A stretch of DNA of 64,000 bases from Gammaproteobacteria bacterium (GTDB lineage Bacteria > Pseudomonadota > Gammaproteobacteria > Poriferisulfidales > GCA-002705445). The DNA lies in assembly GCA_045561235.1 (NCBI GenBank), contig JBJKYB010000002.1:874942-938941 (forward strand). Direction: 5' to 3'. The notes beneath the pieces were generated by a model that worked only from the letters and a program-made list of their open reading frames with translations, did no database searches and had not been told where the DNA came from. Position numbers and translations under genes: made by a program. Below, piece by piece: positions 1-53,137 of the stretch (the stretch's first letter is position 1; each line of letters opens with the position of its first letter).

Positions 1-232
1 AAATGAAGCTCTTGTAGAGGCGTTGAAAACTGAAGATAAAGACTCTATTGAGAAATGTATAAAAGATCTTTCCGAGGCTTCGGCAAAAATGGCTGAGATG
101 ATGTATGCTGAGCAAGCTGCAAAAGCTCAAGAAAATACTGAATCTTCTGCAGACGGATCAAATGCAAACTCTGAAAATGACGCAGAAGTTGTTGATGCAG
201 AATACAAGGAAGTTAATAACGACAAGAAATAA
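1..232 (+). CDS. dnaK: Chaperone DnaK (Hsp70), C-terminal fragment; gene starts upstream of window
   Basis: Frame 2 reads ...EALVEALKTEDKDSIEK...AEVVDAEYKEVNNDKK*, the characteristic acidic/Ala-rich DnaK C-terminal tail; followed directly by dnaJ. Confidence 0.85.
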   Translation, partial: NEALVEALKTEDKDSIEKCIKDLSEASAKMAEMMYAEQAAKAQENTESSADGSNANSENDAEVVDAEYKEVNNDKK

Positions 233-253
233 TTAACGAGCGTAACTAGCGAT

Positions 254-1189
254 ATGGATTACTATGAGATTCTAGGTCTTAGTAAAGGTGCATCTGATGA
301 TGAAATTAAAAAAGCTTTTAAAAAAAAAGCTATGAAATTTCATCCTGACAGAACTGGCAACGATAAATCTGCTGAAACAAAATTTAAGGAAGCCAAAGAA
401 GCCTATGATGTTCTTTCGGATCCCCAAAAGAAATCTATGTATGACCAGTATGGAACTACAGATTTCGGTGGTGGTTTCGGTGGTGGTTTTGGTGGCCGCT
501 CTCAAGGAGGTTTTAATGCTTCCGGATTTGAAGATGTATTCGAGGATCTCTTTGGAGATATTTTTGGTGGTGGTCGAGCCAGAAACCCAAATCGAGCATA
601 TAAAGGTGCTGATTTAGAGTACCATCTTCAGTTAACTCTTGAAGAAGCAGCCTTTGGAATTGAAAAAGTTGTAAAATTCAGAACAAAAAATGAAGATAAA
701 GAAATATCAGTTTCAGTACCCGCTGGTGTTGACAACGGTGATCGCGTCCGTCTTTCTGGCAAAGGTGAGCCTGGTATTAATCAAGGGCCGCCGGGAGATC
801 TTTTTATAAGAGTCGTTTTGGAAAAACATTCGATATTTGAAAGAGATGGTAATAATTTATATTGCAATGTACCAATTTCTTTTGCAGAAGCTACTCTAGG
901 CGCTGAAATTGAAATCCCAACTCTTAGTAATAATAAAGTTTCAATTGATATTCCTCCAGGCACTCAAACTGGAAAATATTTTAGATTGAGAGGAAAAGGA
1001 ATAAAATCAGTTAGAGGAGGCAATATTGGAGATCTTATGTGTTCTGTTCAAATTGAAACACCCGTTAACTTATCTAATGAACAAAAAAATATACTATTAC
1101 AGTTTGAAGAGCAGCTGAAAAATAGTAATAAAAAACATAGCCCAAAATCAGAATCCTGGATTGACGGGTTAAAAAACTTCTTTAAATAG
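254..1189 (+). CDS. dnaJ: Co-chaperone DnaJ, unusual 311-aa form lacking the Cys-rich zinc-finger domain
   Basis: J-domain with HPD (KFHPDRT), G/F-rich region ([11 protein letters not shown]), C-terminal domains near-collinear with E. coli DnaJ ([33 protein letters not shown]...[16 protein letters not shown]); no CxxCxGxG repeats; position immediately 3' of dnaK. Confidence 0.9.
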
Positions 1190-1259
1190 AAATTTTCTTT
1201 TAGTGCTAACCAAACTCTATGTTAATATAATGTAATTTTAACATCTTAAAAAACTTACA

Positions 1260-1994
1260 ATGCCAATAAGCGTCTGCGTACCTGGAATTACAGGAAAAAT
1301 GGGAATGGAGATAGCAAATCTCGTATTATTAGATAATACTAATATAACATTATCATCTGGAACAGTCAGAGATAAAACAAATTTCAATAAGACATCATTA
1401 AGTTTTGACGAAAAAATTGTTACTTCAGATCTTGAATTTGCAATTAAAAGTTGTGATGTTTGTGTTGATTTTACGAGACCCGAATACACTATGAAAATTC
1501 TTGAAGAATGTGTAAAACAAAATAAGAAATTAGTTATAGGAACAACAGGATTATCAGATGCTCAAGTAAAAGAAATAGAGTCAGCAAGTAAAAAAATATC
1601 TATTTTAAAAGCTTCTAACATGAGTATCGGGATAAACTTGTGTTTAAAACTTGTTGAAAAAATAACTTCTTCAATAGGAGATCATTCTGATATAGATATA
1701 ATTGAGCATCATCATAAACATAAAGTTGATATGCCATCTGGAACCTCACTGGCATTTGAAAAGGTAATAAAAAATAATTTATCAGGTAAAAAAGATATTA
1801 ATCATCATTGTTTAAGAGTTGGTAATGTAGTAGGTGATCATATGATTAAATATACTTTAGAGAATGAGTCAATAGAAATTAATCATAAAAGTTTTGATAG
1901 AAAAATTTTTGCTGAGGGCGCAATTTTAGCTGTCAAATGGATTTCAAGTAAAAAAGACGGTTTGTATGATATGGGCGATGCACTTTCTTTATAA
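1260..1994 (+). CDS. dapB: 4-hydroxy-tetrahydrodipicolinate reductase
   Basis: DFTRPE, VIGTTG, IIEHHHKHKVDMPSGT motifs collinear with E. coli DapB; dapB-carAB synteny. Confidence 0.9.
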   Translation: MPISVCVPGITGKMGMEIANLVLLDNTNITLSSGTVRDKTNFNKTSLSFDEKIVTSDLEFAIKSCDVCVDFTRPEYTMKILEECVKQNKKLVIGTTGLSDAQVKEIESASKKISILKASNMSIGINLCLKLVEKITSSIGDHSDIDIIEHHHKHKVDMPSGTSLAFEKVIKNNLSGKKDINHHCLRVGNVVGDHMIKYTLENESIEINHKSFDRKIFAEGAILAVKWISSKKDGLYDMGDALSL

Positions 1995-2034
1995 AAGTTA
2001 AGTGTATTAATAAAATGATAAATAGGAAAAACTT

Positions 2035-3168
2035 TTGCAACAGGCAATTTTAATCTTAGAAAACGAAAAAATATTTTATGGTAAATCTGTAGGATACAAA
2101 AAAGACTCTTTTGGCGAAATAGTATTTAATACTGCAATGACTGGATACCAAGAAGTTATTTCTGACCCGTCCTACAAAAATCAAATCATTACATTTACCT
2201 ATCCACATATCGGAAATGTTGGAGTTAATCAAGAAGATCAAGAGTCGAATTCATCTTATGTTAGTGGATTAGTCTTAAGTGAAATTCCAACCGATCCATC
2301 AAACTGGAGATCGACAGAGGATTTTTCAACTTATTTAAAAACTAAGAAAATTGTTTGCATTGCAGAATTAGATACAAGATATATTACATCTTTGATAAGA
2401 AATAAAGGTGCAATGAGTGCTTGTATTATTCATAACAAAAAAGATATCAATAAAGCAAAAAAAGAATTAGCTGGTTACACAGGAGTAAGCGGCACTGAAT
2501 TAGCCTCTAAAGTTTCTATAAAGAAAAAATATGATTTTAAGGAAAATATATTTCAATATACTGAAAAATTACCGAGTAAAGATAAAAAGTTTAAGGTAAT
2601 TGCATATGATTTTGGTGTGAAAAAAAATATACTACGCATTTTAAATTCTATGAATTGTGAAGTAAAAGTCGTTCCTGCAAAAACAAAAGCTAATGAAATT
2701 TTATCTTATAATCCTGATGGGATATTTTTATCAAATGGTCCAGGAGATCCTGAACCATGTGAATTTGCAATTAAGTCCATACAATCTCTTTCTGAAAGTA
2801 AAATTCCAATATTTGGAATTTGCTTAGGTCATCAGTTGATCTCACTAGCAAGTGGTGCAAAAACAAAAAAAATGAAATATGGCCATCATGGAGCCAATCA
2901 TCCTGTTTTAGACTTAAAAACAGGAAAAGTAATGATTACAAGCCAGAATCATGGGTTTGTTGTTGATGAAAAAACTTTGCCAGATAATTACGAAATAACA
3001 CATAGATCTTTATTTGATAATACAATTCAGGGAATAAAACATAAAAAACTTCCTATATTTAGCTTTCAGGGGCATCCTGAAGCATGCCCTGGACCTCAAG
3101 ATGTGAATTATTTATTTAAGGACTTTATAAAATTTATGAAGAAGAATAGAAATGCCAAAAAGAAGTGA
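2035..3168 (+). CDS. carA: Carbamoyl-phosphate synthase small (glutamine amidotransferase) subunit
   Basis: N-terminus [18 protein letters not shown]...TYPHIGNVG and GATase Cys (GICLGHQL) match CarA; TTG start; overlaps carB by 17 nt. Confidence 0.92.
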
Positions 3169-6100
3169 TATAAAAAAAATATTAATTTTAGGAGCAGGAC
3201 CAATAGTTATTGGGCAAGCCTGTGAATTCGATTATTCCGGTGTACAAGCTTGTAAGGCTTTAAAAGAAGAAGGTTATTCAGTAGTTCTTGTAAATTCAAA
3301 TGTAGCTACAATTATGACTGACCCTGAAATGGCTGACGCAACTTATATTGAACCTATTAACTATAAGATTGTTGAAAAAATTATAAAAATTGAAAAGCCT
3401 GATGCAATTTTGCCTACAATGGGAGGGCAGACTGCATTAAATTGCGCTTTAGATTTAGATAGATTAGGTATCTTAAAAAAATATAAAGTAGAGATGATTG
3501 GTGCATCAAAAAAAGCAATTGATTTGGCCGAAGATAGAGCTCAATTTAAACAAGCTATGAAAGAAATAAATTTAGACTCTGCAAAATCTTTTATTGTGCA
3601 CAATATTGATCAAGCAATAGAAAAGCAAAAAGAAATAGGATTTCCAGTAATTATTAGACCATCCTTTACCTTAGGAGGTAGCGGTGGTGGTATAGCTTAT
3701 AATATGGAAGAATTTGTTGAAATTTCAACAAGAGGGCTTGATGTTTCTCCCACCACAGAAATTTTATTAGAAGAATCCTTATTAGGATGGAAAGAGTACG
3801 AAATGGAGGTTGTAAGAGATTCTAAAGACAATTGTATTATTATCTGCTCAATAGAAAATTTTGATCCCATGGGAGTTCATACTGGTGATTCAATAACAGT
3901 TGCTCCTGCACAAACATTAACAGATAAGGAGTACCAGATAATGAGAAATGCATCTATCTTAATCTTGAGAAAGATTGGAGTAGATACTGGAGGTTCAAAT
4001 GTTCAATTTGCAGTGAATCCCAAAAATGGGAAGTTAGTTGTTATAGAAATGAATCCTAGAGTATCTAGATCTTCCGCTTTAGCATCAAAAGCTACCGGAT
4101 TCCCTATAGCAAAAGTAGCAGCAAAACTTGCTGTAGGATACTCACTCGACGAACTTCACAATGAAATAACAGGAGGTGCAACACCAGCATCGTTTGAGCC
4201 TACTATCGATTATGTAGTTACAAAGATTCCAAGATTTGCTTTTGAAAAATTTCCAGATGCAAATAATAGGCTAACAACACAGATGAAATCTGTTGGAGAA
4301 GTTATGTCTATAGGAAGAAACTTCCAGGAATCATTACAGAAGGCACTTTCAAGTTTAGAACTTGATATAAATGGACTTGATGATATTGATGGATTTAAAC
4401 AACTAGATATTTCTAATTTTGAATATGAGTTAAAAGAACCGGGGCCAAGCAGAATCCTTTTTGTTGCTGAAGCATTTCGAAAAGGTTATTCAGTAAATGA
4501 AGTGTATGAAATATCAAGTATAGATCCTTGGTTTCTAAATCAAATTTTAATTTTAGTTGAAATAGAAAAAGAAATAGCCAATAAAAAAATAAATAATATT
4601 TCTTCAAAAGAACTATTATTTTATAAAAAAAAGGGTTTTACAGATTTAAAAATTGCCTCTTTAATGAACACAACACAGCATAAAGTAAGAAAAAAAAGAG
4701 AAAATAGCGGAATAAAGCCGGTCTATAAGAGAGTCGATACATGCGCAGCTGAATTTCCAACAACAACTTCATATTTGTATTCTACATATGAACAGTTTTG
4801 CGAATCACTACCAACAAACAATAAAAAGATTATTGTAATTGGCAGTGGACCAAATAGAATTGGACAGGGAATTGAATTTGATTATTGTTGTGTTCATGCG
4901 TCAAAAGCAGCTCAAGAGTTAGGTTACGAGACCATAATGATAAATTGCAATCCTGAAACTGTATCCACTGATTTTGATACATCCGATAGATTATATTTTG
5001 AACCAATCACATTAGAGAGTGTGTTAAATATAGTTGATATAGAAAAACCTGACGGCGTAATTGTCCAATATGGAGGACAAACACCACTAAAATTAGTTAA
5101 CGACTTAGCTAAGTTTGGAGTTCCTGTGATAGGGACCTCTTCTGAATCAATAGATGCTGCAGAGGATAGAGAGAAATTTAAAAATATTTTAAAAAAAATT
5201 AATGTGCTTCAGCCGGCAAATAGTACAGCAAGAAACAAGAAACAAGCATTAGAAGAAGCAGATAAGATTGGATATCCGATTATTGTTAGGCCATCTTATG
5301 TTTTAGGTGGAAGAGCTATGGAAGTGATATATGACTCTGAAGAACTGAAAAAATATATAAATGAAGCAGTCAAAGTTTCAAATGATGCGCCTGTGTTAAT
5401 AGATAAATTTTTAAATGAAGCTATAGAGATTGATGTTGATGCGGTTAGAGATCTTGAAGGTGAAGTTTTTATAGCAGGAGTAATGCAACATATTGAGGAA
5501 GCTGGAGTACATTCTGGAGATTCTGCATGTTCAATTCCAACATATTCAATTAGTAAATCACAAATAAATATAATAAAAGAAAATACAGTAAAAATGGCAA
5601 ATGAATTAAATGTTAAAGGTTTAATGAATGTTCAGTTTGCAATCAAAAATAATAAAATCTTTGTTATAGAAGTAAATCCGAGGGCATCAAGAACAATACC
5701 GTTTGTTTCAAAATCAATTGGTATATCTGTAGCTAAAATTGCTGCAAAATGTATGCTTGGAGTAAGTATTAAGCAGCAAAAACTTCCAAAAAATATTAAA
5801 TATAATTTTTGTTATGTTAAAGAAGTTGTATTTCCTTTTTTAAAGTTTCCGGGAGTAGATCCAATATTAGGCCCGGAAATGAAATCAACGGGAGAAGTAA
5901 TGGGGATTGGAAAGAATTTTGGCGAAGCTTTTGCAAAATCACAGATAGCAACAAATGTAGTTATTCCAGAAAAGGGGACCGCCTTTATAAGTGTCAAAGA
6001 TGAAGATAAAAAAAATATCATGCAAGTTGTTGAGAAACTTTTAAAGTTAGGGTTTAATTTGGCAGCAACTCATGGGACGCAAAATTTTTTAAAAGCAAAT

Positions 6101-6367
6101 AAAATTAAATGTCAAAGAGTTAATAAAGTAAGAGAAGGAAGAACTCACATAGTAGATATGATTAAAAATAATCAAATTGATTTGATCATAAATACAACGC
6201 AATCAAAACAAGCTATAAAAGATTCATATCTTATTAGACGCGAAGCACTAAATTATAAAGTTTGTTACACGACAACTATCGCTGCAGCAAATGCGCTAGT
6301 TAGCGCCATAGATTATTCTGAAAATTTAGATGTATATAAGTTACAGGATATTTTTAAGCTTGCGTAA
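3152..6367 (+). CDS. carB: Carbamoyl-phosphate synthase large subunit
   Basis: 1071 aa with two ATP-grasp halves ([21 protein letters not shown]... and [21 protein letters not shown]...) and C-terminal MGS-like domain. Confidence 0.95.
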
Positions 6368-6394
6368 AAATCTTATCAACTTCATAATTAACTT

Positions 6395-6868
6395 ATGGAT
6401 AAGTTTCCTATAACCATAAGTGGTGAAAAAAAGCTTAGAGACGAACTTAATAATCTTACAAATACTGAAAGACCAAGAATTATTGATGCCATTTCTGTAG
6501 CAAGAGAGCATGGCGATTTGAAAGAGAACGCCGAATATCATGCTGCGCGTGAACAACAAAGTTTTATTGAAGGAAGAATTAAAGATATCAAATTAAAACT
6601 TTCAAATGCGGAAATTGTTGACCCTAAAAAAATTACTACAAATAAAGTTGTATTTAGTGCAAAAGTAAAACTTTACGATTTTGAAGATGAAAAAGAAATA
6701 ACCTATACAATAGTGGGAGATGATGAGGCCGATATAAAAAGTGATATGGTCTCGATAAATTCTCCTGTAGCTCGCTCATTAATTGGCAAGGAAGTGGGAG
6801 ATATAGCTTCTGTAAAAACCCCAAGTGGTGATAAGGAATTTGAGATATTAAATATATTCTATGGGTAA
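6395..6868 (+). CDS. greA: Transcription elongation factor GreA
   Basis: [29 protein letters not shown] and [13 protein letters not shown] nearly identical to E. coli GreA. Confidence 0.93.
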
Positions 6869-7472
6869 AAAAACAAATAATTGGTATAAAAGTCATATTA
6901 ATGACGAGTTTGTTAAGCTTGCAAATAAAGAAAACTGGCGCTCAAGAGCAGTATATAAATTAAAAGAAATTGATGAAAAATATGATCTGATTTCTTCAAA
7001 TTCAAAAATACTGGATCTTGGTAGTTCTCCAGGAGGTTGGAGTCAGTACGCGTCAAGAAAACATAAAAATATAACTATCACCGCTGTAGATCTATTAAAA
7101 ATGGAAAATATTGAAAATGTTAATTTTGTACAGTCAGATATTGAGGATTTTGGTAAAAATTACCTAAAAAACGGTTGTTTTGATAAAATTGACCTTGTAA
7201 TGTCAGATATTGCCCCTAATATAAGTGGTATAGATAGTGCTGATGTGCCAGCAATATTGAGTTTAGCAGAAATTGTGACAGATATTGCTTTAGGTAGTTT
7301 AAATGAATCAGGAAATTTGCTAATAAAGTTGTTTCAAGGAAAAGGTACTGACGAATATATAAAAGAAACAAAACAATTTTTTAAAAAGGTAAGAATTATT
7401 AAACCAAAAGCTTCAAGATCAAATAGTAGGGAAATATATATGTTGGCTTCAACACTTAGATTAAATGGATAA
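6861..7472 (+). CDS. rlmE: 23S rRNA (U2552-2'-O)-methyltransferase RlmE/FtsJ
   Basis: [12 protein letters not shown]...[14 protein letters not shown] and [13 protein letters not shown] motifs; immediately 5' of ftsH as in E. coli. Confidence 0.92.
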
Positions 7473-7487
7473 CTTAGGATAAAGATT

Positions 7488-9404
7488 ATGAATGATATGT
7501 TAAAAAATATGTTGGTATGGATTGTTATAGCTGTAGTAATAATGTCGGTCTTTAATAACTTTGTACCGCAACAAGAAAGCTCAACTAATCTTTCGTATTC
7601 TGAATTCATAAATCAAGTAAAAAATGATCAAATTGAAAGTGTATTAATTGAAGCTGATGGAAAAACAATATCGGGCACCTATAAAAATGGCACAACATTT
7701 TTAACATATGGTTTAAATGACCCAAAACTTGTAGACGATCTTTTGGTTAATAATATTGAAATTTTAACCGAACCTCCTGCTAAACCATCATTGTTTTTAC
7801 AGATACTAATTCAATGGTTCCCAATGTTGCTCTTAATTGGAGTGTGGTTATTTTTTATGAGACAAATGCAAGGTGGCTCTGGTGGTAAAGGAGCGATGTC
7901 ATTTGGTAAGAGCAAAGCCAAGATGATGACAGAAGATCAAAATAAAGTTACCTTTGCTGACGTAGCTGGAGTCGAAGAAGCAAAAGAAGAAGTAGAAGAA
8001 CTTGTAGATTTTTTAAAGGACCCTTCGAAATTTCAAAAGTTAGGCGGAAAAATTCCTAAGGGTGTTTTAATGGTTGGCTCCCCGGGTACAGGTAAAACAT
8101 TGTTAGCAAGAGCAATTGCTGGTGAAGCAAAAGTTCCATTTTTTACCATCTCGGGATCTGATTTCGTAGAGATGTTTGTCGGAGTTGGTGCATCTCGAGT
8201 TAGAGATATGTTTGCGCAAGCAACAAAACATGCACCATGTATAATATTTATTGATGAGATTGATGCTGTTGGGAGACATAGAGGTGCTGGTCTTGGTGGA
8301 GGTCATGATGAAAGAGAACAAACCTTAAACCAATTATTAGTTGAGATGGATGGTTTTGAAGGTCATGAAGGAACTATAGTTATAGCCGCAACGAACAGGC
8401 CCGATGTTTTGGATCCCGCTCTTCTTCGTCCAGGAAGATTTGATAGACAAGTTGTGGTTCCTCTTCCAGATATTAGAGGAAGAGAGCAAATTTTAAAAGT
8501 TCATATGAGAAAAGTACCTATTGCTGATGATGTCGTTCCATCAATTATTGCAAGAGGAACACCAGGTTTTTCAGGAGCAGATTTAGCTAATCTTGTTAAT
8601 GAAGCAGCACTGTTCTCTGCTAGAGCAAATAATAGCAAAGTAGGAATGAATGAGTTTGAACTTGCTAAAGATAAAATTATGATGGGAGCGGAAAGAAAGT
8701 CAATGGTAATGAGCGAAGAAGAAAAGAAGCTGACAGCCTACCATGAATCAGGTCATGCAATAGTTGGAAGGCTTGTTCCTGAACATGACCCTGTTCATAA
8801 AGTAACAATTATCCCTAGAGGAAGGGCTCTAGGAGTTACAATGTTCCTTCCAGAAGACGATAGATATAGCAATAACAAGCAGCGCTTAGAAAGTCAGATT
8901 TGTACCTTATACGGAGGTAGGATTGCAGAAGAGTTAATTTATGGAAAAGACAAAGTAACAACTGGAGCGTCTAATGATATCGAAAGAGCTACAGAGATTG
9001 CTAAAAATATGGTCACTAAATGGGGTTTGTCTGAAAAAATGGGGCCTATGTCTTATTCGGATGAAGAAGGAGAAGTTTTTCTTGGTAGATCTGTAACACA
9101 AACAAAAACAATGTCAGACGATACTGCAAATGATATTGATTCTGAAGTTAGGCTGTTAGTTGATAAATCATATGCTACAGCAACAAAAATGATTAAAGAT
9201 AATATGGATAAGCTTCACGCTATGTCAGAAGCACTTATGACATATGAAACTATAGATAAAGACCAAATTGATGATATTATGGCTGGAATAAAACCTCGCC
9301 CACCAAAAGGATGGGATGACAAAAACGATGATGATAATAAATCCTCTTCTAACAGCAGTGATATCAAAGAATCAGGTTTTTCTGATCCGGCAAGTAATCA
9401 CTAA
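7488..9404 (+). CDS. ftsH: ATP-dependent zinc metalloprotease FtsH
   Basis: N-terminal TM segments, AAA Walker A (GSPGTGKT), SRH region, HEXGH zinc site ([10 protein letters not shown]). Confidence 0.96.
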
Positions 9405-9412
9405 AAAAAATA

Positions 9413-10765
9413 ATGTCTAAGAAGTATTTTGGTACTGATGGAATTCGTGGGGAATTCGGCAGTGAACCTTTGACTGAAAATTTTTTCTTGCTTCTTGGAG
9501 CAGCAATAGCTAAATCACTTCTCAAATCTAATAACGATTCTAGAAAAAAAATAGTATTTGGCTGTGATACAAGAGAATCATCTAACAAAATAATTGATTT
9601 AATTTCTGTGGGACTAAGCTCTGAAAACTGTATCATTCATAATGCAGGAATAATATCAACTCCAGCAATAGCTTTTTACACTAGGAAAAATAATTATGAT
9701 CTCGGTATTGTGGTAAGCGCTTCACATAACCTATATCAAGACAATGGAATAAAAATATTTAATAAAAATGGATATAAGATTAGCCTTGAAGATGAAAATT
9801 ACATTGAAAATTATATCGAGAAACTAGTTAATGAAAATTATATCTGTAATAACAATTATAATTTAGTTGACATATCTAAAGATATTAAAAAAGAATATAT
9901 TGACTCGTGTTTGAAGACTGTAAGTTTAAATAAAAATACAAATAATAATATAAGATTGACATTAGATTTGGCTAATGGTGCAAACTATGAAGTCGGAAAA
10001 GAAGTTTTTATCAAAGCAGGTTATCAAGTAAATTGTTATAACGACAAACCGAATGGAAAAAATATCAATGAAAAGTGTGGATCAACATATCTGAAAAATT
10101 TACCAGATCAAATTAGTAAGGATCACTCAATGTATGGAATTTCTATGGATGGAGATGGAGATAGGATTATTATTATAGATGAAAATAATAATTTTTTAGA
10201 TGGTGATGATATTTTGTATACGATTATTCGAGGAAAAATCATTAATCAAGAAAAAATTTCTGGAATTGTTGGAACAACCATGACTAATTGTGCATTAGAA
10301 AATTATTTGAAAACAGTGGGTATTAAATTTATAAGGGCTGACGTAGGAGATAAATACGTTCTTAACGAGCTTAAAAAAAATGATTATGAGTTAGGCGGAG
10401 AAACCTCAGGACATATTTTAATGTTAAATCATGCAACTTCTGGAGATTCAATTATAGCAGCATTACAATTTTTATTTTATTCTGATATTCTTATCAAAAA
10501 TAATAAAAATAGTCTATTGGAAAAATATCCACAAAAAATTACAAATATATTTTTCAAGCAAAATCTACCAGAAAATATTATTAATATTGTAATAAAAGAG
10601 GCTTCAGATAAATTTTCTTATAACGAATTAAGATTGATAATTAGAAAGTCTGGGACAGAAAATTGTATAAGAATTATGTTAGAAGCTAAAGATAAAAAAA
10701 TTGTTGAAGAAATGAGTAAAAAAATTAAAGATTATATTGAAGATAAGTTAAAGAATTTATTATGA
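9413..10765 (+). CDS. glmM: Phosphoglucosamine mutase
   Basis: YFGTDGIRGEFG N-terminus, phosphoserine loop SASHNLYQDNGIK, GDGDR metal-binding motif. Confidence 0.92.
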   Translation: MSKKYFGTDGIRGEFGSEPLTENFFLLLGAAIAKSLLKSNNDSRKKIVFGCDTRESSNKIIDLISVGLSSENCIIHNAGIISTPAIAFYTRKNNYDLGIVVSASHNLYQDNGIKIFNKNGYKISLEDENYIENYIEKLVNENYICNNNYNLVDISKDIKKEYIDSCLKTVSLNKNTNNNIRLTLDLANGANYEVGKEVFIKAGYQVNCYNDKPNGKNINEKCGSTYLKNLPDQISKDHSMYGISMDGDGDRIIIIDENNNFLDGDDILYTIIRGKIINQEKISGIVGTTMTNCALENYLKTVGIKFIRADVGDKYVLNELKKNDYELGGETSGHILMLNHATSGDSIIAALQFLFYSDILIKNNKNSLLEKYPQKITNIFFKQNLPENIINIVIKEASDKFSYNELRLIIRKSGTENCIRIMLEAKDKKIVEEMSKKIKDYIEDKLKNLL

Positions 10766-11508
10766 ACAAAATTATCGCTGGGAATTGGAAAAATAATGGG
10801 AATATAGAATTTATAAAAAATTATTTTGATTTTTTTCTTAAGAATAAAAATTCTAATAATCAAATAATTTTATTTCCGCCAGATCTATATATTAGTCAAG
10901 TTCATAGCTATAAAGTTGAGAAAAATTTTTCAGTTGGTGGGCAGAGAATAAATTCTGACGGGGGTAGCACTCATACAAGCGGAACAACCAGTGAAATGTT
11001 TTTGGATAATGGATGTGACTATATTTTAATTGGGCATTCAGAAATTAGAAATTTGTCAGATCAATATACATATAGTGCAGCAAACGATTTGTATAACTCT
11101 AATGGATTGCAAGCTATTTTTTGTGTTGGCGAGAACGAAGATTCAAAAAAAAGTGGTAATACTTGTGATGTCCTAAAAAAACAACTTGAAGATTTATGTT
11201 GTAAAGATAATTATCCTGTAATTAGCTCAAAAAAAGCTATCATTGCCTATGAACCCGTATGGGCAATAGGGACTGGTAATACTCCAACAATAGATAACAT
11301 TTCTCACATACATAGATTTATCAAAACTTATGTTTCAGAAAATCACCCTTTTGCAAAAGAAAAAGATATAATGGTTCTTTACGGAGGTAGTGTAAATTCA
11401 AAAAATGCGAACGATATACTTTCTGCTCCGAATGTTGATGGAGTTTTGATTGGGGGTGCTTCGTTAGATGTTAAAGAGTTTACCACAATATGTAATTTAA
11501 AAATTTAA
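10762..11508 (+). CDS. tpiA: Triosephosphate isomerase
   Basis: AGNWKNNG start, IGHSEIR, AYEPVWAIGTG, YGGSVN motifs; glmM-tpiA-secG order as in Pseudomonas. Confidence 0.92.
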   Translation: MNKIIAGNWKNNGNIEFIKNYFDFFLKNKNSNNQIILFPPDLYISQVHSYKVEKNFSVGGQRINSDGGSTHTSGTTSEMFLDNGCDYILIGHSEIRNLSDQYTYSAANDLYNSNGLQAIFCVGENEDSKKSGNTCDVLKKQLEDLCCKDNYPVISSKKAIIAYEPVWAIGTGNTPTIDNISHIHRFIKTYVSENHPFAKEKDIMVLYGGSVNSKNANDILSAPNVDGVLIGGASLDVKEFTTICNLKI

Positions 11509-11517
11509 GGAAAATAT

Positions 11518-11874
11518 ATGATTTATACAATTTTATTAGTAGTTGCAGTAATCTTATCAATATTGATAATATTTTTTATATTAATGCAACAAGGCAAGGG
11601 GGATGCTAGCGGAATGTTTGGTGGTGGATCTTCTGGTGCAGTTTTTGGAGCATCCGGAGCTGGAAATTTCATTACAAAACTAACTACTTTTTTAGTTGTT
11701 CTATTTTTTTTAAACTGTTTAGCATTAGCATATTTAGCTAAAAGTAAAGTTTCAGAGAGTGATAGTGTTATTATTCAAAATAACTCTTCCGATGTTGAAG
11801 ATGAAGTTTTAGATGATAATAATAAATCTAACTCAACAGACAGCTCGCAAGATGATTTAGTTATTCCTGACTAA
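11518..11874 (+). CDS. secG: Preprotein translocase subunit SecG
   Basis: TM1 followed by QQGKGDASGMFGGGSSG glycine-rich loop typical of SecG; followed by tRNA-Leu as in E. coli secG-leuU. Confidence 0.9.
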   Translation: MIYTILLVVAVILSILIIFFILMQQGKGDASGMFGGGSSGAVFGASGAGNFITKLTTFLVVLFFLNCLALAYLAKSKVSESDSVIIQNNSSDVEDEVLDDNNKSNSTDSSQDDLVIPD

Positions 11875-11887
11875 TTAATTTGAACAT

Positions 11888-11972
11888 GCCGATGTGGTGG
11901 AATTGGTAGACACGCTGTCTTGAGGGGGCAGTGGCGAAAGCTGTGCCGGTTCGACTCCGGCCATCGGCACCA
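11888..11972 (+). tRNA. tRNA-Leu (anticodon GAG), type II with long variable arm, CCA encoded
   Basis: GCCGATGTGGTGGAATTGGTAGACAC...CTTGAGG... folds into cloverleaf; near-identical to E. coli leuU; anticodon loop CTTGAGG. Confidence 0.9.
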
Positions 11973-12170
11973 GAAAAGCTTCTTTATAGGCTTTGTATAT
12001 ACTCCCATAAAATATTTTTCACTTTAAACTATTGTAATATTTAAATAATATGTTGTAATTTTACTTAGAACTAAATGGAAATATATTATGTTAAATTAAG
12101 TAAAATTATTTTATATTTTTTTATTTCTCAGATATCATTGTTTTTTGTGACACAAGGGCGTATTAATATT

Positions 12171-12527
12171 ATGTTAAATAACTATTTTCCAATTTTATTA
12201 TTCATTATTGTCAGTATTATCATAGGTGCATTACCTATAATCGCTTCAAGAATAATAAATAAAGGTGAAAAAAATAAAGCCAAGAGCTCAGCTTATGAAT
12301 GTGGCTTTGAAAACTTTAGTGATGCTCGTATGAAATTTGATATTAGGTTTTATCTAGTAGCAATTCTATTTATTATTTTTGATTTAGAAATTGCATTCTT
12401 ATTTCCGTGGGCAGTTGCTTTAGATAGTCTAGGATTTAACGGTTTAATAGCAATGAGTATTTTTTTGATAGTTTTAGTTATAGGTTTTATATATGAGTGG
12501 AAAAAAGGAGCCCTAAACTGGGATTAA
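12171..12527 (+). CDS. nuoA: NADH-quinone oxidoreductase subunit A (start chosen at internal ATG; ORF track extends to 12075)
   Basis: 3-TM protein with conserved [25 protein letters not shown] motif; 119 aa from ATG 12171 matches typical NuoA length. Confidence 0.85.
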
Positions 12528-12530
12528 GTT

Positions 12531-13016
12531 ATGGATATTATAGAGTCTTTAAATAGCAATAATAATGGATACGTTACCGCGTCATCAAAAGATTTAATTA
12601 ATTGGGCAAATACCGGATCAATGTGGCCAATGACATTTGGATTAGCATGTTGCGCTATTGAAATGATGCATGCTGGAGCATCAAGGTATGACCTAGATAG
12701 ATATGGCATGATGTTTAGACCAAGTCCTAGACAGTCAGATGTAATAATTATTGCGGGTACCTTAGTAAATAAAATGGCTCCGGCCTTGAGAAAAGTCTAT
12801 GATCAAATGGCAGATCCAAAATGGGTAATATCAATGGGTTCATGTGCAAATGGTGGAGGGTATTACCACTACTCATACTCTGTTGTTAGAGGTTGCGATA
12901 GAATAATTCCTGTTGATATTTATGTGCCAGGCTGTCCTCCAACAGCGGAAGCATTGCTTTATGGAATTATGCAGCTAAAAAATAAAATTCATAATAAAAA
13001 ATCTATCAAAAGATAA
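12531..13016 (+). CDS. nuoB: NADH-quinone oxidoreductase subunit B
   Basis: N2 cluster ligand motifs CCAIEMM...GSCANGGG...VPGCPP. Confidence 0.95.
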
Positions 13017-13042
13017 CTCTCATTTAATAATAGGCATTCACT

Positions 13043-13771
13043 ATGAATAATCAAGATAAGTCAAATAGTCAATTATTTTTAAATCAAAATGATATTTTGA
13101 AAGAACTTTTTGATCGTAACTTACATGAATACGAATTTTTATTTGAAAACAAGGATACTGTATCTTTTAATACCAATGATTTATTAAAAGTGATGAATAT
13201 TTTTCAAAGTAATAGCACCATTAAGTTTGAAACACTTATAGATATAACCGCTGTTGATTACTCTGATTATGGTGTCAGTGAATGGAACGCAAAAAATGCT
13301 AATAACAAGGGCTACAGTAGAGGTATAAAAAAAGATAGTAGTGGAAGATACACTTACGAGTCTACAAAAACTAATTATAACCAGCCAATTAAAAGGTTTG
13401 CTGCGATATATAATTTATTATCTACAAGTTCAAATGCCAGACTAAAAATTAAATTTTATTGCGATGATGACGAAAGCCCATCTTTGCCATCCGTTACATC
13501 AATCTGGTCTTCAGCAAATTGGTACGAAAGAGAAGCTTATGATTTATTTGGCATTGTATTCTCTGATCATCCAGATTTAAGAAGAATTTTAACTGACTAT
13601 GGTTTTATTGGGCATCCGCTTAGAAAGGATTTTCCGCTAATTGGCAACGTTGAAGTAAATTATGACCTCGAAAAAGAAAGAGTTGTTTATCAGCCTGTAA
13701 CAATTAAACCAAGAGTTTTAATTCCAAAAGTTATTAGAGAAATATCAAATAAGGAAGATAAAAATGCCTGA
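13043..13771 (+). CDS. nuoC: NADH-quinone oxidoreductase subunit C (separate gene, not fused to nuoD)
   Basis: [40 protein letters not shown] motif; about 30-aa Asn/Lys-rich insert in the middle. Confidence 0.9.
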
Positions 13772-15017
13772 AATAAAAAGTTATACAATGAATTTTGGCC
13801 CCCAACATCCATCAGCACATGGTGTATTAAGATTAATATTAGAGCTAGAAGGCGAGGTAATTGTTAGAGCTGATCCTCATATTGGTTTATTACACAGAGG
13901 AACTGAGAAACTTGCTGAGAGTAAACCATACAATCAAAGTATAGGCTATATGGATAGATTGGACTATGTTTCTATGATGAGTAATGAACATGCTTATGTT
14001 TTATCAATAGAAAAACTTTTAGATTTAGATATTCCAATAAGAGCAAAGTATATTCGAGTAATGTTTGATGAAATTACAAGGGTGCTAAATCATCTTATGT
14101 GGTTAGGTGCTCATGCGTTAGATATTGGAGCAATGTCGGTATTTTTATATGCGTTCAGGGAAAGAGAAGACTTAATGGATTGTTATGAGGCGGTTTCAGG
14201 AACAAGAATGCATGCAACTTATTATAGACCAGGCGGAGTTGCTAGAGATCTACCTCTAGAAATGCCAAAATATACAGAGACAAAATGGAAATCAAAAAAA
14301 GAAATAAATAAATTAAATGAGTCTAGAGAGGGAACTTTATTAGATTTTATTGATGATTTTACGAGTAGATTTCCGAAATGTATCGACGAATATGAGACTC
14401 TTCTTACTGATAATAGAATTTGGAAACAAAGAACTGTAGATATTGGTATCGTTTCACAAGAAAGAGCTCTGCAACTTGGATTTACCGGGCCTATGCTTAG
14501 AGGATCTGGCATTGCCTGGGACCTTAGAAAAAAACAACCCTATGAGGTATATAAAGATCTGTCATTTGATATTCCTATTGGCACAAATGGAGATTGTTAC
14601 GATAGATATCTAGTTAGAATGGAAGAAATGAGACAGTCAAATAAAATTATTCAGCAATGCGTTGAGTGGTTAAAAAATAATGATGGTGAGTTTTTATCGG
14701 ATAATAACAAAATAACAGCACCTAGCAGAGATGAAATTAATGAAGACATGGAGTCTCTGATTTATCATTTTAAACTTTTTACCGAGGGTTATTGTCTTCC
14801 TGAAGGAGAGGTTTACAGTGCTGTTGAGCATCCAAAGGGTGAATTTGGAGTCACATTGATATCTGATGGTTCGAACAAGCCATATAGGGTTAAAATACGT
14901 GCACCTGGATTTCCTCATCTTGCTGCGCTTAATGAAATGGTAAATGGTCACATGATATCTGATGTTGTTGCTGTAATTGGAACACAAGACATTGTTTTTG
15001 GAGAAATTGATAGGTAG
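13764..15017 (+). CDS. nuoD: NADH-quinone oxidoreductase subunit D
   Basis: [16 protein letters not shown] start and full-length 49-kDa subunit homology. Confidence 0.95.
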
Positions 15018-15522: not shown

Positions 15523-16840
15523 GATAAGAATTAATGAACTATGTTACTCAACTTTGTCAAGTGACAAACCTAACACATTTGAAACATATGTCGATCAAGG
15601 CGGTTACTCTACATGGAAAAAAATTGTTTCTTCTTCAATGAGTAAAAAAGAAATTATTGAATTAGTTTTAAAGTCTGGACTTAGAGGTAGAGGTGGCGCT
15701 GGTTTTCCAACGGGTAGAAAATGGAGTTTTATAAATCAAGATTCAGAAGATATCAAGTATTTAGTTTGTAATGCTGATGAATCTGAGCCTGGCACATGTA
15801 AAGATAGAGATATCTTAAGATATAATCCTCACGCACTTATTGAAGGTATGTTAATTGCTAGTTATGCAATAGGCGCTGAAGTTGCATATTGTTATTTAAG
15901 AGGTGAATTTATTGATGATGTATATTCAACTTTTAAAACCGCATTGTATGATGCTTATGATAATAAGCTTATAGGGAAGAATATATTAAACAGCAATATT
16001 AATATTGAGCTTCATGACTTAATAGGCGCTGGTGCTTATATTGTTGGCGAGGAAACTGCCATGCTTGAATCAATAGAAGGAAAGAAAGGTTTCCCAAGAT
16101 TCAAACCTCCTTTTCCTGCTGTAAAAGGATTATTTGGTCGCCCAACAATTATTAATAATGTAGAAACGTTAGCTTCGATCCCTAAAATTATTGAAAATGG
16201 TCCCGAATGGTTTAATTCTGTAGGAACAAAAGATAGTCCAGGATTTAAATGTTTTTCTGTATCGGGACATGTTAATAAACCTGGTAATTATGAAATTCCA
16301 TTAGGCACTCCATTTAAAAAATTATTAGATTTAGCAGGTGGGATGAAAAATGGAAAGAAAATTAAAGCCGTAATTCCTGGCGGTTCTTCTGTACCAGTTG
16401 TTCCAGGAGAAATTATGCTGGAAACAAATATGGATTATGAATCAATAACAAAGGCTGGCTCGCTACTTGGCTCAGGAGCAGTAATTATTATGGATGAGGA
16501 TACAAATATGGTTGAAGTAATTCATAGAATTGCAAGATTTTATTATTCAGAATCATGTGGTCAGTGTACACCATGTCGAGAAGGTACAGGATGGATGTAT
16601 AAAATTATAGACAAAATACTTAAAGGTAATGGCACTCTGGAAGATCTAAAAACTCTTGAGTCTATTCCAAATATGATTTCTGGAAGTACAATTTGCGCCT
16701 TGGGTGATGCCGCTGCCATGCCAGTAGAAAGTTTTATAAAAAATTATAAAGAAGAATTTTTAAAGTATATTAAAACCCAAGAAGAAGTTGTAGATAATAA
16801 CTATACTAATAATAAAGAATTTGTAATGCAGCAAAAATGA
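15509..16840 (+). CDS. nuoF: NADH-quinone oxidoreductase subunit F (51 kDa, FMN/NADH site)
   Basis: GRGGAGFPTG FMN motif, ESCGQCTPCREG 4Fe-4S motif. Confidence 0.95.
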   Translation: MMEDKIRINELCYSTLSSDKPNTFETYVDQGGYSTWKKIVSSSMSKKEIIELVLKSGLRGRGGAGFPTGRKWSFINQDSEDIKYLVCNADESEPGTCKDRDILRYNPHALIEGMLIASYAIGAEVAYCYLRGEFIDDVYSTFKTALYDAYDNKLIGKNILNSNINIELHDLIGAGAYIVGEETAMLESIEGKKGFPRFKPPFPAVKGLFGRPTIINNVETLASIPKIIENGPEWFNSVGTKDSPGFKCFSVSGHVNKPGNYEIPLGTPFKKLLDLAGGMKNGKKIKAVIPGGSSVPVVPGEIMLETNMDYESITKAGSLLGSGAVIIMDEDTNMVEVIHRIARFYYSESCGQCTPCREGTGWMYKIIDKILKGNGTLEDLKTLESIPNMISGSTICALGDAAAMPVESFIKNYKEEFLKYIKTQEEVVDNNYTNNKEFVMQQK

Positions 16841-19203
16841 AAATAAAAATAAATAATAAGGAATGTAGTTTTAATAAAGGTGAAACTATAATTCAAATTG
16901 CAGATAGAAATGGCATCCATATTCCAAGGTTTTGTTACCATGATAAATTATCAATTGCTGCAAACTGTAGAATGTGTTTAGTTGAACAGGTTGGAATTAA
17001 CAAACCTCAACCAGCATGTTCAACTCCAGCTATGGAGGATCAAGAATATTTTACTAAATCTGAATTAGCCTCTAATTCTCAAAAAAATACAATGGAATTT
17101 TTGCTGATAAATCACCCTCTTGATTGTCCTGTATGTGACCAAGGCGGAATGTGTGAACTACAAGATCAAGCTTTAATGCATGGAAGAGTTAAATCAAGGT
17201 ATGAGCAAGAGAAAAGAATTGTAATGGACTATAAAATAGGACCGTTGATAACTACCAATATGACAAGATGTATTCACTGCACAAGATGTGTAAGATTCGG
17301 AGAGGAAATAGCAGGTATCAAAGAATTTGGCGCTTTTGGAAGAGGTGAAGGTATGGAGATTAGAACATACTTAAAATCAGCAATTGATTCCCCAATGTCA
17401 GGCAATATGATAGATATTTGCCCAGTAGGAGCTTTGAATGCAGCACCTTCACATATGAAAGGAAGAACTTGGGAATTAGAAGAGGTTAAACATATATCTT
17501 CTCATGATTGCGTTGGCTCCAATATGGATTTACATGTTTTAGATAATAGTGTTTTTCGAGTAGTTCCTCATGAGAATAAAAAAATTAATGAAGTTTGGAT
17601 TTCGGATAGAGACAGATTTTCTTACGAAGCTATGGAGCATACTGATAGAGTAAAAAAACCAATCGCTAAAATAAACGGTCGTCATGTTGAGGTTGAATGG
17701 GAGCAGGCGTTTGAGATTATTTATGAAAAAATAAATAAAGTGAAATTTAATAAATCTGCAGGATTTGTAAGCGCAAATTCAACAGTAGAAGAACAATATC
17801 TATTTCAGAAATGGCTTAGAGAAATTAATATAAATAATATAGACCATAGAGTTTCTCAAAATAAATTTGAATATGAGGATGAATTGATTTTTCCAAAGAT
17901 AGATATAAATATTGAGGAAATTGAAAATATAGAATCTGTATTACTTATTGATAGTAATATTACATATGAACAACCAATACTATCTCATAAAATAAGAAAA
18001 GCGTATTTAAAAAATGCAAAAATCAATTCTATACATTCATACAGTTATAATTATAATTTTGATATTAATAACTCATTTTTAGTAAATCCAAATCAACTAG
18101 CTGAAACTCTTATTGATATAGTTGAGTATTTAACAATTATTACTATAAATGATAAATCTTTGAAAAAATTTACTATTCCTGATGGTATAAAGAAAAAATT
18201 TAAAGGACTTTCCAATAAAAAAATTATTGAAATTAGTAATGATATTTTAACTAAGAATTCTCTAATAATCCTTGGCTCTAACTTAAAGAATCATCCTGAT
18301 TATGCTTTTTTTAAAATTCTTATAGATATAATTTCTACATTAACAAAATCAAATAAAGCTTATCTTGGCAATAATAGCAATGAAGCTGGGGCATATTTAA
18401 CTGGATGTTTACCAAATAAAACAGAGGCTTTAAGAGGAATTAAGAATAACGGACTTAACGTTTATGATTCAATTATTGGAAATATGGAGTGCTATATAAT
18501 TTATAATTTAGAATTAATTGATTTCTATTATTACTCAGAACTAAAAAATTCACTTGAACAGGCTAAGTTTGTTTTAGGCTTTCAGAATTTTATAACAGAA
18601 GAAGAAAAAAGTTATTACGATGTAATTCTGCCTTTAGCAACAATTTTTGAAAGTCCTGGTACTTTCATTAACATTGAGGGACAGTGGCAGTCTTTTGTTC
18701 AAGCATGCCAACCTCATCATGATTCTAAAGAAGGTTGGAAAATATTAACAAAATTAAGATCAATCTTTGGTGCTAATGTAGAAAATTCTTTAGATTACAT
18801 TGATATTTTAAATGAGGTTGACTCATCAATACGCGATTATAAACCTTTTGAAAACCTAGAATATAAAAACATTGATATTAAAAATAATTCACACAACGGT
18901 TCACTTATTAGATCGGGTGGAAGTAGTAATTATTATATTGATAATATAGTTAGAAGAGCCACCTCACTAAATAATGTGAGTTTAAGTAAGAATTCTATAA
19001 GCGTTAATAGAAGGACTTTAGAACAAAATAATATAGATATGTCAAAAAATAAAGTACTTGTAAAACAAGGCGAAAACTCTTTATTGGCTGAGTTAATTAT
19101 TGATGAGAATGTATCAGATGATTGTATTTATATTATAAATTCAAACAAGGAACACTATGATCTTGGAAAGCAATACGAACCTATAATTATTGAAAATGTT
19201 TGA
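16837..19203 (+). CDS. nuoG: NADH-quinone oxidoreductase subunit G (75 kDa); C-terminal half strongly diverged and AT-rich
   Basis: N-terminal 2Fe-2S ([15 protein letters not shown]), [17 protein letters not shown] and [10 protein letters not shown] clusters; 788 aa vs ~900 in E. coli. Confidence 0.9.
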
Positions 19204-20293
19204 TTATATAAATAACTTTTTGGATACAATATTCACTGCTTATAGAGAATTAAGTATATTGCCACATACATTAATATTAATCGGGATGATTATGATTCCT
19301 CTTTTAATAATTGTTGCATATTACACCTATGCGGAAAGAAAAATTATCGCTTCAATGCAGGTTAGATTAGGACCTAATGTTGTTGGCCCAAAGGGGTTAA
19401 TGCAACCCTTGGCTGATGGAGTAAAATTATTTTTTAAAGAAATTGTAATTCCAACAGACTCGAATAAATTTTTATTTCTTTTAGCACCAGTCATTACTTT
19501 TACTGTAGCTTTTGCTGCATGGGCTGTAATACCATTCGATAGTGTAATGGTTTTATCAGATATAAATGCTGGATTACTTTATGTTTTGGCAATGACTTCA
19601 TTAGGAATATACGGGATTATTATTGCTGGTTGGGCGTCAAACTCAAAGTATGCTTTGCTCGGCGCGATGAGGTCAGCTTCTCTAATCATTGCGTATGAAA
19701 TTGCTATGGGGTTTGCACTTGTAGGTGTAATTATGGTTTCAGGGAGTTTAAATCTTGGAGATATTATTAATGGTCAAAAGGGTTCTATTTTTAATTGGTA
19801 TTGGGTTCCTTTATTTCCATTATTTGTGATTTATTTTATTTCAGGTGTTGCCGAAACAAATAGAGCTCCATTTGATGTAGCAGAAGGAGAATCAGAACTC
19901 GTTGCTGGTTTCCATGTCGAATATTCAGGTATGGGTTTTGCTATATTTTTTATAGCAGAATATGCAAACATGATCTTAATTTCAGCATTAACAGCAATAT
20001 TATTTTTTGGTGGTTGGCTATCTCCATTTTCTGTTAGCAGTCTTGGTATTTTTGAGATCAATAACTTTACAAATAATATTTTATTATTCCTGATCAATGA
20101 TGGGATACATTGGTTTATTATAAAAACCTTCTTTTTTATGTTTTGTTTTATATGGTTCAGAGCAACTTTCCCAAGGTATCGCTATGATCAAATAATGCGG
20201 CTTGGATGGAAAATATTAATTCCAATTACAATAATTTGGATCTTCGTAGAAATGATATTTATATATTTAAAGTTAGGGCCTTGGTTTATTTAG
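19190..20293 (+). CDS. nuoH: NADH-quinone oxidoreductase subunit H
   Basis: Polytopic membrane protein with ND1 motifs ([12 protein letters not shown]...[24 protein letters not shown]). Confidence 0.95.
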
Positions 20294-20303
20294 AGAAAAT
20301 ATT

Positions 20304-20774
20304 ATGAAAAATTATTTTAAAAGCTTTTTTCTTTATGAATTATTACTTGGAATGAAAGTAACATTTCTTAATATGTTTAAAAAGAAAATCACATTACGCT
20401 ATCCTGAAGAGAAAGCACCTCAGTCGCCAAGGTTTAGAGGTCTTCATGCCTTAAGGAGATATCCAAATGGGGAAGAAAGATGTATAGGATGCAAACTTTG
20501 TGAAGCAGTTTGCCCAGCATTGGCAATTTCTATAGATACAGAAGAAAGAAATGATGGTACTAGAAGAACAACTAAATATGATATTGATTTATTTAAATGT
20601 ATATTTTGTGGTTTCTGTGAGGAAGCTTGTCCAGTTGATGCAATTGTAGAAACTAGAATTTATGAATACCACTTTGAAGAGCGTGGTGAAAATATTATGA
20701 AAAAAAGCGATCTTTTAAAGATCGGTGAAAAATATGAAAAAGAGATAGCTGCTGATCTGACTTCAAAAATTTAA
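20304..20774 (+). CDS. nuoI: NADH-quinone oxidoreductase subunit I (2x 4Fe-4S)
   Basis: Two CxxCxxCxxxCP motifs ([24 protein letters not shown]). Confidence 0.95.
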
Positions 20775-52330: not shown

Positions 52331-52354
52331 ATTTTAATTTAAAAAGAGAATAGA

Positions 52355-53122: not shown

Positions 53123-53137
53123 ATAGGGGTAATAAAA

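Follow-up and report, generated by a model that had tools for sequence, protein, structure and literature searches.

A DnaJ without its zinc finger in the dnaK operon of a gammaproteobacterium with a small genome

Class A DnaJ, the most widespread of the J-domain proteins, is recognised by its zinc finger, whose exact role is debated, with client locking, holdase activity, thiol-reductase activity and rigidity all under discussion. Here we examine a dnaJ gene that lacks this domain, located at 254..1189 (+) of a 64,000-nucleotide stretch (the window) of the gammaproteobacterial contig JBJKYB010000002.1, and compare it with the closest described systems. Domanski et al. (2026) traced the repeated origin of class B proteins to duplicated class A genes that had lost the finger, the examples being the actinobacterial DnaJ2B, the eukaryotic cytosolic Sis1/DNAJB1 and the class B proteins of the endoplasmic reticulum (PMC12799103). 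The E. coli construct DnaJ Δ144-195 is a bona fide DnaK co-chaperone that supports DnaK-dependent refolding under reducing conditions; ~2.5x more protein is needed, it has no thiol-reductase activity and it performs poorly with mildly oxidised clients (PMC4428491). The zinc-finger-less DnaJ of Thermus thermophilus substitutes for E. coli DnaJ in refolding assays in vitro (PMC3727329), and the oxidoreductase activity of DnaJ is reported to act on oxidised DksA in Salmonella (PMC8262869). For the present locus we regard it as probable that the operon DnaJ was turned in place from class A to a class-B-like protein by one ancient 65-codon deletion, that the product was kept by strong purifying selection and recombined into at least one species, and that a comparable loss in SAR86 was independent.

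The open reading frame (ORF) runs from ATG to TAA and encodes 311 aa. Its parts are as follows:

254..1189 (+), dnaJ without the zinc-finger domain, 311 aa plus stop, beginning 21 nt past the dnaK stop
257..445 (+), J domain, residues 2-64 (PF00226), with HPD residues 30-32 at nt 341-349 and a four-helix J fold in the structural model
455..601 (+), Gly/Phe-rich (G/F) linker, about residues 68-116, read from the sequence and including the FGDIF (DIF) motif
614..1063 (+), C-terminal domains (CTDs) I and II, residues 121-270, Pfam DnaJ_C at full length (1-152/152, E 1e-50)
686..691 (+), deletion junction, codons K145 and N146, from the codon alignment; sister alleles have 65 extra codons here
1064..1186 (+), dimerisation helix and DnaJ-type tail, residues 271-311, with helices at 275-290 and 298-310; the tail matches the DnaJ profile to 370/374

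Pfam detected DnaJ (PF00226) at residues 2-64 (E 9e-26) and DnaJ_C at residues 121-270 (E 1e-50), and no match to the DnaJ_CXXCXGXG domain (PF00684) was found in the 311-aa protein. The NCBIfam DnaJ profile PRK10767 gave two separate matches, one of residues 2-146 to profile positions 1-144 and one of residues 145-311 to positions 206-370, skipping ~61 profile positions that represent the zinc finger. TIGR02349 (the DnaJ_bact equivalog) also matched in two split stretches and fell below its cut-off (314.5 vs 377.2 bits), and the top PDB sequence match, DnaJ of S. pneumoniae (6jzb), was likewise split, with chain residues 152-224 skipped. The protein contains two Cys and no CxxCxGxG motif. The observation of a zinc-finger-less dnaJ, first made in a reading of the letters alone (the sequence-only reading), is confirmed; its further statement that the J domain, the G/F region and both CTDs were retained agrees with Pfam, the sequence and the model. 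The class A succession of J domain, G/F region, CTD I, CTD II and dimerisation region is present and the four CxxCxGxG motifs that class A proteins carry as an insertion in CTD I are absent, an arrangement which the domain scan, the model and Foldseek all identify as class B (type II). The HPD motif of J-domain proteins (Hsp40) lies between helices II and III; H30, P31 and D32 were invariant in a 91-sequence alignment, as were the DIF motif and the core residues of the CTDs. The G/F linker measures 44-50 residues in finger-less alleles, compared with 40-46 in finger-bearing ones.

When its codons were aligned with those of the same locus in six zinc-finger-bearing relatives, a gap of exactly 65 codons (195 bp) appeared, and the missing codons are those that bear the four motifs in the closest relatives, in agreement with the roughly 65 residues estimated earlier. 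Cys repeats in an alternative frame had been named as a sign of an assembly frameshift; no CxxCxGxG was present in any of the six frames across all 64 kb and the other frames at 500-900 were rich in stops, so no frameshift conceals the domain. The clean in-frame loss described in the sequence-only reading stands, whereas its placement of the junction between KF and RTK was three residues too early, the real junction being K145/N146. The finger had also been placed between the G/F region and the CTD; structurally it is an insertion inside CTD I. The deletion is one precise in-frame event by which the finger was excised from within CTD I. A microhomology-mediated deletion was considered and rejected, no convincing direct repeat being present beside the junction in sister alleles.

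Among 5.8 billion proteins searched there were ~40 finger-less clusters of 304-314 aa with 74-100 % identity to the window DnaJ. They lie on considerably more than 100 contigs, drawn from Tara, JGI, ENA, Logan and NCBI, some of them from single-cell genomes and some 1.06-1.11 Mb long. One NCBI MAG encodes proteins identical to those of the window (MFL2549669.1 and following) on a contig of 1,064,527 bp. Among the GTDB species representatives, the finger-less gene was found in five further genomes (L001-L005, including single-cell genomes and one long-read metagenome-assembled genome, MAG), and six related genomes (L006-L010 and L012) encoded a DnaJ of 368-374 aa with four motifs. The same 65-codon gap and junction were present in six species-level genomes. 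The finger is ancestral in the family, since the outgroup L051 has four motifs and the deeper branches L006, L008 and L012 are also finger-bearing. In a dnaJ tree reconstructed without the finger columns the finger-less alleles formed a single clade with ~14 shared signature residues, which, together with the identical junction in all of them, indicates a single origin of the deletion. Recurrent independent deletions with the same end-points within the family were ruled out by these signature residues and by synonymous-site patterns. The flanking genes fail to separate finger-less from finger-bearing genomes. The deletion is an allele class and not a clade-wide trait; alignment had been proposed as a check of whether it was lineage-wide, and it proved to be present in some species and absent from interleaved sister species. 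The neighbours of dnaJ in the window, of which the last three served as anchors for synteny and phylogeny, are:

2..232 (+), 3' end of dnaK (C-terminal lid and tail, ...DAEVVDAEYKEVNNDKK), stop at 230-232, gene truncated by the window start
1260..1994 (+), dapB, the conserved downstream neighbour
2035-3168 (+), carA, downstream of dapB
3152-6367 (+), carB, downstream of carA

Transfer of the deletion between species was indicated by the comparison of L004 (the single-cell genome AG-447-N20, finger-less) with L012 (AH-287-I11, finger-bearing). Informative sites were counted in the quartet L004, L012, L003 and L010, and are given here as those grouping L004 with L012, with L003 and with L010, respectively:

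upstream 1-4000, 203:109:89
upstream 4001-8000, 279:85:80
dnaJ segment around the deletion (~0.3 kb), 4:36:4
the same ~0.3-kb dnaJ segment, only codons with identical amino acids, 3:14:1
dapB, 69:19:11
carB, 173:63:63
downstream 16401-20400, 224:93:63

The L004 flanks thus grouped with finger-bearing L012 over 8 kb upstream and 10 kb downstream, and the J-domain and tail ends of L004 dnaJ were also L012-like. Only the ~0.3-kb segment around the deletion grouped with the finger-less alleles, synonymous sites included, and a sliding-window comparison gave the same switch within the gene. The mosaic is not the chimera of a single genome, because alleles of the L004 type (P0042) form a cluster of 108 sequences. 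With L012-like flanks and a central segment resembling the finger-less alleles, a short deletion-bearing tract would have entered the L004 lineage by homologous recombination, and we conclude from these site patterns that recombination is likely to have moved the finger-less allele into at least one divergent species. In the core species (the window, L001-L003, L005, L007, L009 and L010) finger state does not track the flanking phylogeny, and nothing further is claimed for them; a sister grouping of L002 and L010 was seen in dapB-carAB only. The proportion of synonymous differences (pS) was 0.51-0.58 in finger-less dnaJ (five alleles) vs about 0.59-0.73 in carB, ftsH and dapB of the same genomes, a weak hint of younger coalescence.

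Of the competing explanations, the one that fares best, unlikely as we judge it to be, is that the deletion is a purely vertical trait of one clade and that the interleaving results from recombination or poor resolution in the flanking genes. It draws on the inconsistency of the core-species flanking phylogeny from segment to segment and on the restriction of the species-tree proxy to 20 kb. The L004 data speak against it, as all flank segments and both dnaJ ends go with L012, only the ~0.3 kb around the deletion is finger-less-like (at synonymous sites as well) and the mosaic cluster comprises 108 sequences.

Slightly less credit is due to the proposal that the gene is an accessory paralog of the CbpA type, with a separate full-length class A dnaJ elsewhere doing the main job and nothing essential lost. 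Every previously described origin of class B involved class A duplicates (PMC12799103), and the scan for further copies was limited to 64 kb of a ~1.06-Mb genome. Synteny, however, places the gene in the dnaJ slot of grpE-dnaK-dnaJ. The order grpE-dnaK-dnaJ-dapB-carA-carB-...-ftsH was the same in the finger-less genomes L001-L005 and in the finger-bearing L006-L010 and L012, the sisters holding their finger-bearing dnaJ exactly there; full-length dnaK lay immediately upstream of dnaJ, with grpE before it, in L001-L012, and the DnaK C-terminal piece at the start of the window matched the DnaK C-termini of related loci at 67-92 %. Profile scores agree with this position. The window DnaJ scored 391.5 bits against the DnaJ subfamily model PRK10767 (cut-off 338) but only 184.7 bits against the CbpA equivalog NF007618 (cut-off 403), whose match stops at residue 298, and 209.4 bits against the Thermus/Deinococcus-type model NF010892 PRK14299 (cut-off 392). 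Its C-terminal tail aligns with the DnaJ tails of Photobacterium and Legionella, in keeping with the earlier statement that it is DnaJ-like and not CbpA-like, and the nearest homologs beyond the finger-less clade are class A DnaJ proteins with ~80 % identity in the shared columns. In E. coli the modulator gene cbpM is co-transcribed downstream of cbpA; here the gene 3' of dnaJ is dapB and no cbpM-like partner follows. A phmmer search of all ORFs of at least 40 aa with J-domain and CTD queries found no second J-domain or DnaJ_C ORF in the 64-kb window, and genomes of ~1.1 Mb would in any case seldom retain paralogs. By operon position, by the class A dnaJ of sister genomes in the same slot and by the PRK10767 cut-off, the gene is an ortholog of DnaJ. 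Annotation labels for such genes are inconsistent, 'DnaJ C-terminal domain-containing protein' alternating with 'molecular chaperone DnaJ'.

The finger-less alleles differ by up to 19 % in protein, and the ratio of nonsynonymous to synonymous divergence (dN/dS) among them was 0.03-0.09, the same as among the finger-bearing sister alleles (0.03-0.09). The finger region of the sister species gave 0.04-0.10; since the finger is equally constrained there, constraint on the dnaJ locus is not generally relaxed. Gene decay, with relaxed constraint in a streamlined genome and the deletion as a first step to loss, is thus very improbable. The genome is small and AT-rich (GC about 32 %) and reductive evolution often loses domains, but the ORFs are intact in all lineages, finger-less dN/dS equals that of the finger-bearing sisters and the HPD, DIF and CTD core residues are invariant. 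That the Cys-rich region was lost only in sequencing or assembly (through a collapsed repeat, frameshift or chimeric join) has a negligible chance of being right. The window does derive from a MAG, and the related single-contig variants L081 and L082 look suspicious, but the identical gap and junction occur in six species-level genomes (single-cell genomes and long-read MAGs among them) and in ~40 clusters drawn from five data sources, Cys motifs are absent from every frame, and an artefact cannot yield up to 19 % protein divergence at a dN/dS of 0.03-0.09. The artefact, the CbpA paralog at this locus and the pseudogene are therefore rejected on the strength of many assemblies, synteny, profile scores and purifying selection. 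The window gene is the dnaK-operon DnaJ, a class A ortholog by descent and class B by architecture, and in this the sequence-only reading of a dnaK-linked, type II-like DnaJ ortholog was right.

A second group of finger-less proteins emerged from a profile-free search of 1.84 billion representatives, in which about two dozen of the best 150 matches had no finger. One of them, P0189 (49 % identity to the window DnaJ), represents a very large family of 302-307 aa on hundreds of marine contigs, including contigs of 1.09 and 1.12 Mb, and down to 73 % identity no member had the finger. UniRef attributes one of them to a SAR86 cluster bacterium. On the SAR86-cluster contigs (L084-L087; dnaJ at L087 6001-6921) the gene lies in the order fur-grpE-dnaK-dnaJ-rpsB-tsf-pyrH-frr, with dnaK-dnaJ-dapB in another member, and its top profile is DnaJ, not CbpA. 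The SAR86 junction reads ITLP/NxxKKVSV and the hairpin is two residues shorter than that of the window protein. DnaK of the window family is 64.5 % identical to SAR86 DnaK and 67-70 % to that of other Gammaproteobacteria, so that SAR86 DnaK is no closer to it than Vibrio or Alteromonas DnaK. Because the junction differs and the DnaK proteins are only 64.5 % identical, the SAR86 loss is judged to be an independent one, and it is fixed across the family. The SAR86 genome paper leaves chaperones and zinc unmentioned and reports sulfate reduction as absent (PMC3358033), and no paper tying SAR86 to a finger-less DnaJ was found in the literature.

Several further variants were encountered in these searches. 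L081 (826-861; Logan SRR12042685_220159, a single 1.5-kb contig) shares 91.6 % identity in its flanks with finger-bearing L006, and in place of the 216-bp finger region it has, in frame, 36 bp copied in inverted orientation from the 3' part of that region (L006 10571-10606); this is possibly a third independent loss or else an amplification or assembly artefact. L082 (1-4430; ENA ERZ508538 NODE_6076, coverage about 2x) is a three-way mosaic in which the dnaK end resembles finger-bearing L009 (89 % identity) and the central dnaJ resembles finger-less L001/L002 (88 %); the part past nt 1080 is unrelated (about 52 %) and runs into dapB-rpsB-tsf. Its origin may lie in chimeric assembly or in a further recombination. 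L083 (660-1613; Logan SRR32124391, GC 25 %) encodes P0178, a finger-less DnaJ-like protein of 317 aa whose tail is of the DnaJ type and which has an Asn-rich stub in the finger's place; its score exceeds the cut-off of the DnaJ subfamily model, and its gene adjoins nusB without dnaK linkage. In P0063, a close relative (265 aa, 78 % identity over 71 % of the query), a precomputed Pfam match places a CBS domain (PF00571) between the J domain and DnaJ_C.

AlphaFold2, run with the 91-sequence alignment, gave a model whose mean predicted local distance difference test score (pLDDT) was 78, rising to about 85-93 in the CTDs, and which consisted of a helical J domain, a disordered G/F linker, CTD I, CTD II and two C-terminal helices. 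The G/F region was modelled at pLDDT <50 and is predicted to be disordered except for a short helix at 92-100. In eukaryotic class B proteins an autoinhibitory helix of the G/F region docks on the J domain and is freed by the EEVD tail of Hsp70; the window DnaK tail ends ...EYKEVNNDKK, not EEVD. Strands 136-144 and 147-155 of the model form a tight hairpin closed by K145-N146, at the site of the finger in relatives. The top Foldseek match in the PDB was the zinc-finger-less T. thermophilus DnaJ (4j80, E 1e-27), and the leading matches were of class B (4j80, DNAJB13, 3lz8, DNAJB1 and Sis1); the CTDs gave template-modelling (TM) scores of 0.74-0.83 against class B structures (Klebsiella 3lz8, Brucella 9zm4, DNAJB1 and Sis1).

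These features suggest how the protein may work. Excision of the zinc-finger hairpin from CTD I would leave a tight β-turn. The J domain, through its HPD motif, would dock on ATP-bound DnaK and trigger hydrolysis, CTD I/II dimers would bind unfolded clients and pass them to DnaK, and GrpE would reset the cycle. Lost with the two zinc centres would be their thiol-disulfide reductase activity, some of the affinity for clients and the share of zinc centre II in DnaK locking, and the oxidoreductase activity of DnaJ, for example on oxidised DksA, would be missing here. With these zinc-centre functions gone, the protein would be expected to behave like E. coli DnaJ Δ144-195, CbpA or Thermus DnaJ, serving well as a co-chaperone where the cytoplasm is reducing, but binding clients somewhat less tightly and coping less well with oxidised ones. 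The protein is most likely a class-B-like DnaK co-chaperone which would have neither thiol-reductase activity nor the zinc-centre functions.

A number of points weigh against the account given here of an in-place conversion followed by selection and recombination. The co-chaperone activity, the predicted deficits and the altered chaperone cycle suggested in the sequence-only reading are carried over from the literature and may differ in this protein. No DnaK residue or column co-varies with the dnaJ allele class, and there is accordingly no sign of co-adaptation in the DnaK partner. The search for another class A DnaJ or CbpA covered this 64-kb window of a ~1.06-Mb genome. The flanks of the core species are reticulate, inconsistent from segment to segment and without consistent sister pairs, and the 'species tree' to which dnaJ was compared is a proxy drawn from the 20 kb surrounding the gene instead of from the whole genome. 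Synonymous sites, with pS of 0.5-0.7, approach saturation, and the ages of the alleles and the timing of a sweep are for that reason not estimable.

A more speculative idea, possible but in our view doubtful, is that finger loss is adaptive in streamlined surface-ocean bacterioplankton, having occurred repeatedly (in SAR86, in this family and possibly in L081), spreading by gene-specific recombination and producing a dimorphism of the sole housekeeping DnaJ. A candidate benefit would be the sparing of zinc or of reduced sulfur, each monomer of an abundant protein otherwise taking up 8 Cys and 2 Zn; alternatively, class-B-like dimers could gain from being more flexible. The finger-less allele would then spread across species while finger-bearing alleles persist, a long-lived functional dimorphism. 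General zinc sparing found no support. The one further protein of this kind examined, MsrB (36831-37205, +), has an intact structural zinc site with its two CxxC pairs (CKCC and CSKC), from which it follows that zinc sites are not shed across the board.

A working finger-less DnaJ would not astonish specialists; it is the allele pair, its spread and the recurrence of the loss that make the role of the finger testable. Sister alleles that are ~80 % identical and differ mainly by this domain are a natural pair for swap experiments. Both affected lineages are abundant ocean bacteria with ~1.1-Mb genomes, and if it is true that no other class A DnaJ exists in them, free-living cells of that environment can do without the finger. 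The putative transfer of the deletion by recombination would also offer a concrete case for asking whether a domain-loss allele can sweep across species.

The remainder of the window yielded the following. A scan for promoters and terminators around dnaJ gave nothing above background, and no rRNA was found in the 64-kb window. Nearly all long ORFs at 1-64000 are on the forward strand and GC skew is positive (0.08-0.27), reaching about zero only near 48-52 kb, a pattern consistent with the leading strand of one replichore; GC falls to 27-28 % at 20-24 kb and 60-64 kb. A formaldehyde-activating enzyme (Fae) homolog (48397-48945, -) and isocitrate lyase (56703-58007, +) hint at C1/C2 metabolism in a ~1.06-Mb heterotroph genome, and an acyl-CoA ligase and a Liv-type ABC (ATP-binding cassette) transporter lie near them at 50519-55982. 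The region 45599-47640 (+) encodes a 308-aa protein with a weak inverse-autotransporter β-barrel match (E 1e-16, far below the cut-off), followed by a 371-aa ORF with no NCBIfam match. Relative to the window, carA is split or truncated in the long-read MAG L001 (about 11780-12907), as are dnaK and carB in L008 (about 8000-14000), probably through assembly frameshift errors rather than biology.

Among known systems, the closest functional analogue of the window DnaJ, and the basis of the mechanism proposed above, is E. coli DnaJ Δ144-195 (Mattoo et al., 2014; PMC4428491), which was preceded by other engineered finger deletions and is likewise a class A protein from which the Cys-rich domain was precisely removed with DnaK targeting kept. 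That protein is a laboratory construct lacking 51 residues, whereas the natural loss comprises 65 residues with all four motifs and has diversified under selection. DnaJ of T. thermophilus (DnaJ2; 4j80, 6psi and 9dvi) has the same J domain, G/F region, CTD I/II and dimerisation region without a finger, is also encoded with dnaK, tops the structural matches (Foldseek E 1e-27) and aligns in sequence as one unbroken stretch (E 8e-52). It is, however, only about 37-39 % identical, and its model PRK14299 stays below cut-off for the window protein; Thermus DnaJ is regarded as belonging to a CbpA-type lineage (PMC4428491) and requires the assembly factor DafA, whereas the window DnaJ is ~80 % identical outside the finger to sister class A DnaJ and keeps the gammaproteobacterial tail. 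CbpA shares the domain architecture and a similar CTD fold (3lz8, TM 0.76-0.78) and is not an ortholog, as the score (184.7 vs 403 bits), the match ending at residue 298, the lack of a cbpM neighbour and the position of the window gene in the dnaK operon all show.

The DnaJ of the SAR86 cluster (the P0189/P0417 family) resembles the window protein in being finger-less, in its place within grpE-dnaK-dnaJ and in its host, a marine gammaproteobacterium of ~1.1 Mb and ~32 % GC. It differs in its identity of only 45-49 %, its other deletion end-points, the family-wide extent of the loss and its more divergent C-terminal tail. Like the conversions described by Domanski et al., the window and SAR86 genes represent convergent derivations of class B from class A through finger loss. 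Those conversions are ancient and took place in duplicated copies, whereas the loss in the window affects the positional dnaK-operon ortholog with no duplicate seen nearby, is recent enough for the finger to survive in sister species and belongs to a group in which the allele class has apparently been exchanged by recombination. Class B architecture and its repeated origin from class A by finger loss were thus already known; what is new is a loss in the dnaK-operon ortholog itself, with constrained, ~80 %-identical sisters that retain the finger, probable recombination across species and a parallel, fixed loss in SAR86.

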